Part shown: piece after piece, positions 37,363 through 37,901 of the stretch
Numbering within the stretch: the first letter of the stretch is position 1
Layout: every line of letters begins with the position of its first letter
Source: an uncultured Chloroflexia bacterium
GTDB taxonomy: Bacteria > Chloroflexota > Limnocylindria > Limnocylindrales > CSP1-4
DNA: 64,000 nt
Reading direction: 5' to 3'
Assembly: GCA_963805585.1 (NCBI GenBank)
Contig: CAWDUR010000033.1
Coordinates: 119 to 64,118 of the forward strand
Made by a program: the position numbers and the translations under genes
The notes under the pieces: model-generated
Told to the model about the DNA's origin: nothing
The model's database searches: none
Seen by the model: only the letters and a program-made list of their open reading frames with translations

Positions 37363-37366
<4 letters not shown>

Positions 37367-37901
37367 CGGATGGGACGACCGGGCGCGTGCCCGCAGAGGC
37401 GCTGGCCGACGAGGACGTCGATCTCGACGTCCTGACCAGCGAGGTCCTGCCGGCCCTCATCGCGCGGCTGCGGGCCAGCCGGCTCGCCGAGCTGGAGGTT
37501 CGCGAACCCGGCTGGCGGGTGCGGCTGCGTCGCGACCTGCGCACGAGCCGTCGAGCGTCGCGTGGACACGCGGGAGACAGCCAGGCAGCGGCTGAGGTGG
37601 TGGATGGCGCCGGCGAGGCCCGCTCGCCCGCGGTGGGCTACTTCAGCCCGGCTCTTGGTCTCGTGGTCGGGCAGAGCGTGAGCACCGGAGACACGCTGGG
37701 CAGCGTCGACGTGCTGGGCATCGCGCAGGAGGTCACGGCCCCCGTCGACGGCATCGTCAGCTCCCTGCTGGCCGAGACCGGCCAGGCCGTCGAGTACGGG
37801 CAGGTGCTCGTCGAGATCGACCCTCTGGGCGACGAGCTGGCCAGCCCTCAAGGCGAAGTGGCTGCTCGCTACTGGCCGACAGCGAAGCGGTGGCACCATG
37901 A
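37363..37901 (+). CDS. BCCP (AccB)-like biotinyl-domain protein lacking the biotinylated lysine (apparent frameshift near 37860)
   Basis: AccB-type N-terminus (LAELEVREPGWRVRLRR) and biotinyl fold (RSPAVG..., APVDGIV..., GQAVEYGQVLVEI). EAMKM is replaced by DVLGI at 37708-37722. Confidence 0.85.

Follow-up and report, generated by a model that had tools for sequence, protein, structure and literature searches.

A lysine-less BCCP paralog kept beside accA in the acc operon of Limnocylindria, a candidate non-catalytic subunit of acetyl-CoA carboxylase

The acc-fab operon and gene X

The window analysed here, i.e., the whole stretch of 64,000 nucleotides, comes from a metagenome-assembled genome that is 60% complete and consists of 33 contigs. 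It contains a single plus-strand run of genes from accD to fabG, in which all junctions overlap or nearly abut (Table 1). An ECF sigma/anti-sigma pair and birA lie upstream of the acc-fab genes; the biotin protein ligase encoded by birA belongs to group I and is without a DNA-binding domain, as read from its ortholog on L132, a 388-kb contig of a related genome that served as the reference for frame comparison. The gene for AccD starts with GTG at 35391, and the TTG start of accA overlaps the accD stop (TTGA). Between accA and accC lies the gene of interest, hereafter X, whose GTG start at 37363 overlaps the accA stop by 4 nt (GTGA) and is preceded by GAGGAG ~7 nt upstream. The AccC protein carries the motifs EINARIQVEH and HAIEFRINAED. 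A canonical accB (IEAMKLF) had been placed separately from X by the sequence-only reading of this DNA; it was found at exactly that position, ~4 kb downstream of X in the same overlapping operon. Apart from AccD and AccA, no carboxyltransferase was found in this 60%-complete genome, and AccC is of the ordinary biotin carboxylase type, so that acetyl-CoA carboxylase (ACC) is the sole visible partner of X.

The operon also encodes a calcineurin-like metallophosphoesterase, whose gene overlaps fabZ on one side and fabF on the other by 4 nt each. Its position is kept in the class families f1 and f2 (L001-L012, L120-L127), and the f4 loci L129 and L130 lack the gene there.

Table 1. Genes of the acc-fab cluster in the window and features of gene X
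Feature	Position	Strand	Basis
birA, group I biotin protein ligase, head of the cluster	33621..34286	+	hit by the L132 birA product in tblastn; the L132 ortholog matches Pfam BPL_LplA_LipB
accD, carboxyltransferase beta with Zn ribbon	35391..36281	+	Pfam Carboxyl_trans and Zn_ribbon_ACC; boundaries from L132 ortholog alignment
accA, carboxyltransferase alpha	36278..37366	+	Pfam ACCA, E 1e-112; L132 alignment
X, lysine-less BCCP paralog, conserved part (168 aa)	37363..37866	+	Pfam, homologs, AlphaFold2 (AF2), Foldseek
X residues 20-57, N-terminal alpha/beta/beta segment, AccB-type by pattern (LPALIARLRASRLAELEVR..WRVRLRR)	37420..37533	+	invariant columns; AF2
X residues 58-84, disordered linker, length variable among orthologs	37534..37614	+	pLDDT <50
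X residues 85-153, biotinyl-type barrel domain without thumb	37615..37821	+	AF2 pLDDT >93; Foldseek
Gly119 codon GGC at the biotinyl-lysine position (DVLGI for EAMKM)	37717..37719	+	alignment; Gly in 148/150 family representatives
Site of 2 extra bases relative to L131; frame shift, ORF reads on to 38124	37866..37872	+	comparison with a 96% identical contig
TGA used as stop codon by the orthologs (in an ATGA overlap with accC); +2 frame in the window	37899..37901	+	
accC, canonical biotin carboxylase	37898..39280	+	Pfam; best PDB matches are biotin carboxylases, E 1e-161 to 1e-153
fabZ	39294..39776	+	
Metallophosphoesterase (calcineurin-like)	39773..40522	+	
fabF	40519..41787	+	
accB, canonical, in the order fabF-accB-fabH	41784..42242	+	IEAMKLF; Lys116 = AAG at 42129-42131; thumb present
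fabH	42239..43452	+	
fabG	43449..44198	+	

The product of X is recognized by Pfam Biotin_lipoyl (PF00364; 33.8 bits, cut-off 22.1) and aligns with E. coli BCCP (4hr7_B) in a family profile alignment with E 2.1e-12. In this alignment, Gly119 of X stands opposite the biotinyl Lys122 of E. coli BCCP (vDvLGia vs. vEamKmm), which bears out the earlier observation that the lysine codon of the biotinylation motif is replaced by GGC. The conserved 168 residues contain no lysine, and judged by this composition X cannot be biotinylated. Gaps totalling 6 residues fall in the thumb region, ~20 codons upstream of the motif, and the same 6 residues are missing relative to the canonical AccB of the window, which keeps the thumb loop (YRSPSPGAEPYV). 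The statement that there is no indel nearby is thus right for the motif itself but not for the thumb. On the equivalog model TIGR00531 (cut-off 115.2 bits), X scores 42.4 bits and the AccB of the window 104.9; the latter passes NF005457 (92.7 vs. 87).

An AccB-type N-terminal segment and a biotinyl fold had been proposed for X. The fold was confirmed: in an AlphaFold2 model built from a 35-sequence alignment, the C-terminal domain (~residues 82-155) has pLDDT >93, and among known structures it most resembles those of E. coli BCCP (1bdo, 4hr7), with 1bdo as the best Foldseek match (E 1.7e-6, target TM 0.81, rmsd 1.7 A, 36% identity). For the N-terminus, the pattern agrees (helix 20-37, strands 40-43 and 54-56, modelled at moderate confidence, pLDDT 57-80), but the alignment with E. 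coli BCCP residues 29-84 and the HMM match (5.5 bits) are weak. Residues 20-57 are the most conserved stretch of the protein, with a dN/dS of 0.10 relative to L132. Orthologs of X range from ~150 to 266 aa in length.

The 3' end of X is disturbed in this assembly. The end at 37901 that had been given for the gene is out of frame with the start, the two enclosing 539 nt, and the ORF as assembled ends at 38124 (253 aa), overlapping accC by 227 nt. On the metagenome contig L131, which is 96% identical in DNA, the closest relative of X has 178 aa, is 97% identical, and ends at the TGA listed in Table 1. At ~37867-37870 the window reads GCT-C-G-C-TACTGG where L131 reads GCTGTACTGG, and the two extra bases fall in the non-conserved tail of X, past the domain. 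Relative to the L132 ortholog, fabH of the window has lost one base at ~43018 (CC to C; one C of GGACCTC), so that PHQAN and GNTSAAS of its catalytic C-terminal part are read in another frame. The anti-sigma gene has two frame changes relative to L132, and birA and the ECF sigma factor are merged into one 467-aa read-through ORF (33567-35391). At least four frame breaks in ~12 kb (X, fabH, and the anti-sigma/birA region) suggest an indel-prone assembly; since fabH is broken too, the 3' shift of X is, like the other frame breaks of the window, probably an assembly error. Frame-wise GC3 was of no help in this genome of 71% GC. The intact fabH ortholog encodes 404 aa, more than expected for FabH, owing to a C-terminal tail rich in Pro/Ala, which both genomes have kept.

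Conservation of X in the class and lysine-less paralogs elsewhere

A word-indexed search retrieved 435 homologs of X; among the best 120 of these, D-V-L-G-[IV] is present in 115 and lysine is absent altogether in 95. An exhaustive profile search yielded 141 clusters at 50% identity (E<=1e-30). Conservation of the Gly in related genomes, one of the checks proposed with the sequence-only reading, was clear: it occupies the lysine site in 148 of the best 150 family representatives, the two others being a truncated sequence and an apparently out-of-frame one, and 56 of the 150 have no Lys at all. Invariant positions are found in the N-terminal module (LPAL.ARL.AS.L.E.E.R...WR.RLR) and in AVGYF.P, D.LG, and GQAVEYGQ. 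A match was obtained in 150 of 151 class genomes. The order includes streamlined genomes of 1.0-1.4 Mb (~90% complete), and X was confirmed in all four of these whose loci were examined; it is likewise intact in every other class locus examined.

The five families of the class that were sampled show the order accD-accA-X in every locus examined, and a canonical accB (LIEAMKLFNE[IV]) is present wherever a class locus reached far enough. The downstream side of X is more variable. The nearest orthologs show an ATGA overlap between X and accC, so that the suggested translational coupling to AccC holds for them, but neither for the window as assembled nor for families f4 and f3. In f4, fabD is placed between X and accC with junctions that overlap or abut (L129 6076-7014), and in f3 a protease-like gene and fabD intervene (L112 7564-8487); the fabD of these loci carries a GHSxGE motif. 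Coupling to accC was for this reason rejected as the defining context of X. The 4-nt accA/X overlap is found in the window and in f4. Of the accA-X-accC synteny that had been put forward, the accA side is therefore conserved and the adjacency to accC is not class-wide: across the loci compared, the invariant neighbour of X is accA, not accC.

Relative to its three closest orthologs, X has a dN/dS of 0.26-0.37 overall, with 0.10-0.37 in the N-terminal module and 0.23-0.40 in the C-domain; the values are highest in the linker and lowest in the two folded modules. For comparison, the same orthologs give 0.14-0.16 for accB and 0.07-0.12 for accC, and X changes 2-4 times faster than the genes around it (dN 0.15 vs. 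0.03-0.10, against L132). Substitution ratios of this kind indicate that X is maintained by purifying selection, more loosely than the catalytic subunits; that selection maintains it follows from the matches in nearly all class genomes, the conserved site and synteny, and dN/dS below 1.

Lysine-less paralogs are not confined to this class. In a survey of 121 Chloroflexota genomes in which loci were examined, two arrangements were found, namely, I) a single E. coli-type AccB (EAMKMMNEI; families f6, f15, f23, and f32), and II) a carrier in the order fabF-accB-fabH (IE[AT]MK.FNE) together with a lysine-less paralog, in at least 13 further families. The residue at the lysine site is Gly in the Limnocylindria class, f22, f27, and f34; Asn in f25 (Ktedonobacteria-like), f10, f38, and f33; Gln in f8, f18, and f42; His in f18; Asp in f17 and f14; Met in f33; Ala in f29; and Arg in f41 and f10. 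With G, N, Q, H, D, M, A, or R at the site depending on the lineage, these sequences lend no phylum-wide support to specific docking by the hairpin tip. In the Ktedonobacteria type (IQSLNVINE), Asn is found in 120 of the 120 top matches (P0271-P0390). Cultured Dictyobacter, Ktedonosporobacter, and Tengunoibacter have this type, under the NCBI name accB. In Dictyobacter aurantiacus S27 it lies in an efp-X'-xseA context (L053 5926-6441), and the canonical accB is placed after fabF in another part of the genome. In those Chloroflexota loci in which neighbours were seen, the canonical accB lies in or next to the fabF-accB-fabH cluster.

Outside the phylum, Armatimonadota have a Gly type (ALGIAN, 12/12) upstream of accC, in addition to a canonical AccB. 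The two loci L023 (5797-6210) and L054 (5806-6222) hold a thumb-less, lysine-less paralog (ALGIAN/VFGISN) ~400-500 nt upstream of accC, and the L023 genome also encodes a canonical AccB with LIEAMKVFNEI. A further lysine-less protein, on contig L049 with the public label 'Proteobacteria bacterium', is identical to one in L178 (G155), which is placed in Chloroflexota; the public label is probably wrong.

The nearest relatives of X that were found are other bacterial lysine-less BCCP paralogs. In trees that, with ~150 usable columns and long branches, are indicative only, the clade of fab-cluster AccBs was supported with 100/97.8 at first and with 95/93.9 when sampling was widened, and one branch had 42 Chloroflexota lysine-less proteins on the same side (support of 91 in the quick and 50/90 in the careful tree); the trees suggest a single early lysine loss in Chloroflexota. 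The Asp-type protein of f17 and the Armatimonadota group branch elsewhere in the wider tree. In the f17 protein (L186, G176) the whole EAMK context is kept, with Asp for Lys (FIEAMDIMNEV). Placed apart from the rest of the Chloroflexota lysine-less proteins in the tree, it may represent a separate, more recent lysine loss. A recent duplication of the accB of this operon, confined to the class, was disfavoured (p-AU 0.016), and monophyly of the Limnocylindria X proteins was neither supported nor rejected (p-AU 0.30). One clade for all lysine-less proteins, including those of Armatimonadota, was weak in the first tree (55/37) and was not recovered with wider sampling.

Possible roles of X in acetyl-CoA carboxylase

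The textbook bacterial ACC has four subunits. With moderate confidence, it is proposed that X is a non-catalytic fifth subunit, which would join the enzyme via its BCCP N-terminal oligomerisation module; on the best reading of its function, it would work like BADC, the biotin-free BCCP homolog of plant ACC. X would be an old BCCP paralog turned pseudo-carrier, which no longer has the biotinyl-lysine or, in this class, the thumb, and has retained the N-terminal alpha/beta/beta module, a flexible linker, and a well-folded biotinyl-type domain. It would be co-produced from one operon with AccD, AccA, AccC, and the true carrier AccB. Its N-terminal module would co-assemble with AccB N-termini, and hence with biotin carboxylase (BC), in an oligomeric beta-barrel hub, for which the hub described for E. 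coli BCCP and Chloroflexus BC1 is the model. The biotin-free C-domain may fill the non-catalytic BCCP docking site on BC and the AccD N-terminus, leaving the lysine-bearing AccB as the swinging arm. The net effect of X may be assembly or activation of the enzyme, or else a dilution of its active arms.

Structural work on related enzymes provides the background to this proposal. In E. coli ACC tubes, described in a preprint, the BCCP C-domain is located at a non-catalytic BC site (as in 4HR7) and at the AccD N-terminus, and the first 30 residues of BCCP, predicted to be alpha/beta/beta, were modelled as a beta-barrel hub at the tube centre that tethers the carriers (PMC11160672). In Chloroflexus BC1, a barrel of BCCP beta-hairpins tetramerises BC and is needed for full activity, and the K553A variant shows no carboxyltransferase binding (PMC11077971); because of the latter, the usual docking of a biotin-free domain at the carboxyltransferase active site is unlikely for X. 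No requirement for biotin is reported for either the hub or the parking site. Since X appears to keep exactly the modules that those roles would use, it is read as an ACC subunit without catalytic function. Opposite charges of the N-termini of X (+2 to +4) and AccB (-3 to -5) were considered as a sign of hetero-oligomers and dropped as general evidence, as they are seen only in the window's near relatives and the X of family f3 is negative.

The lack of lysine, the apparently retained BC-side architecture, and the membership in the acc operon are shared with another reading, which we hold to be rather unlikely: X may be a BADC-type brake that competes with AccB on biotin carboxylase or the hub, so that fewer biotin arms are present per complex, possibly depending on conditions (pH, ions, PII), as first proposed for plant BADCs. 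These were indeed first characterised as negative regulators that displace BCCP (PMC12706156; PMC11926652). Later plant literature, however, describes BADCs as assembly 'glue' or a rheostat and not as simple inhibitors (PMC12706156; PMC11926652), with the 'glue' role being favoured (PMC11926652). The gene context also speaks against a brake: X shares an operon of overlapping genes with all catalytic subunits and invariably comes after accA, which predicts fixed co-production, and it is kept even in the streamlined genomes. As far as gene order can tell, such constant co-transcription with the catalytic genes would fit a stoichiometric scaffold better than a conditional inhibitor.

It is improbable that X acts outside the holoenzyme, e.g., in autoregulation of the operon via the BCCP N-terminal domain, as a decoy of the biotin ligase, or as a link between carboxyltransferase and FabD/FabH. 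Autoregulation of this kind has been reported for E. coli AccB, birA heads the cluster, the invariant neighbour of X is accA rather than accC, and in f4 fabD follows X directly. However, no nucleic-acid-binding feature was seen in X, the group I ligase is without a DNA-binding domain, a dead-end ligase substrate would be costly, and both conserved modules of X are, by pattern and model, just those of a BCCP.

The frame-shifted 3' end, the other frame breaks of the assembly, and the faster evolution of X might be taken for signs of a decaying, non-functional accB duplicate or an assembly artefact, which is highly improbable given a match in 150 of 151 class genomes, an intact gene in every locus examined, the conservation of the Gly, start, motifs, and synteny, dN/dS values below 1 that are lowest in the two folded parts, and a shift that falls in the non-conserved tail after the domain. 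Orthologs with Lys at the site and a decay restricted to this genome were named at the outset as observations that would speak against a BADC-like protein; neither was encountered (148/150 Gly, 150/151 genomes, dN/dS ~0.3). Almost no credence can be given to X as a carrier of another kind, with non-lysine attachment or free biotin held non-covalently: the hairpin shape is conserved in the class (D-x-L-G-[IV]), but the site varies among related lineages, a normal lysine AccB and a normal ligase are present, and we know of no chemistry for the attachment of biotin to Gly.

Relation to known systems and significance

X shares its location in the acc operon and, by pattern and model, its three-part architecture (N-terminal alpha/beta/beta module, flexible linker, C-terminal biotinyl barrel) with AccB/BCCP (TIGR00531; 1BDO, 4HR7), and differs from it in the Gly in place of the biotinyl-lysine, in the missing thumb, in its score below the TIGR00531 cut-off, and in the presence of a separate true AccB in the same operon. 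The BADC proteins (Arabidopsis BADC1-3 of the plastid heteromeric ACCase; plants and green algae) are, like X, BCCP homologs without the biotinylation motif that co-exist with a true BCCP and the heteromeric ACC subunits, which for X are all encoded in its operon. On the level of sequence, X shares with plant BADCs every feature that can be read there. The resemblance to BADC that had been suggested at the outset is upheld to this extent, i.e., for the absence of lysine, the purifying selection, and the position in an acc-fab operon beside a separate accB. The association with ACC comes from gene context for X and from biochemistry for BADC, and X is bacterial and operon-encoded. To our knowledge, BADCs have not been found in prokaryotes, and full-text literature searches yielded no description of a bacterial lysine-less BCCP. 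BADC has been called 'unique to the plant htACCase' (PMC11926652).

The other Chloroflexota lysine-less paralogs (e.g., the Ktedonobacteria type and the Gly types of f22 and f27) have the same architecture as X, co-occur with a canonical accB with an IE[AT]MK.FNE-type motif, and group with X in both trees. The Armatimonadota paralogs also share the architecture and the co-occurring canonical accB, and their group branches apart. Differences from X lie in the residue at the lysine site and in the neighbours (e.g., efp and xseA in Dictyobacter, accC downstream in Armatimonadota), and several of the paralogs outside the class keep a thumb-length loop, unlike X. The actinobacterial epsilon subunits AccE/PccE are not known to be related to BCCP in fold or sequence; X resembles them as a proposed small non-catalytic subunit of a bacterial biotin carboxylase complex. 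These subunits are cited as a small non-catalytic 'glue' of such a complex (PMC11926652).

JGI and NCBI call these lysine-less proteins 'acetyl-CoA carboxylase biotin carboxyl carrier protein', an annotation error that the present analysis exposes. A conserved, operon-encoded bacterial counterpart would offer a simpler system for the question whether a biotin-free carrier is a scaffold, a cap, or a brake, and its presence in the cultured Ktedonobacteria named above makes it testable at the bench. More speculatively, and only as a tentative generalization, a biotin-free pseudo-BCCP may be an ancient, phylum-wide part of the Chloroflexota ACC, with a scaffold BCCP beside a swinging-arm BCCP in an obligatory five-subunit enzyme, the Armatimonadota counterparts being perhaps of separate origin. 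If this holds true, an old accB-type carrier would have lost its lysine after the fab-cluster AccB took over catalysis, and would have been kept for the hub and the docking site. Such a division of labour would parallel that of plant BADC and may be older.
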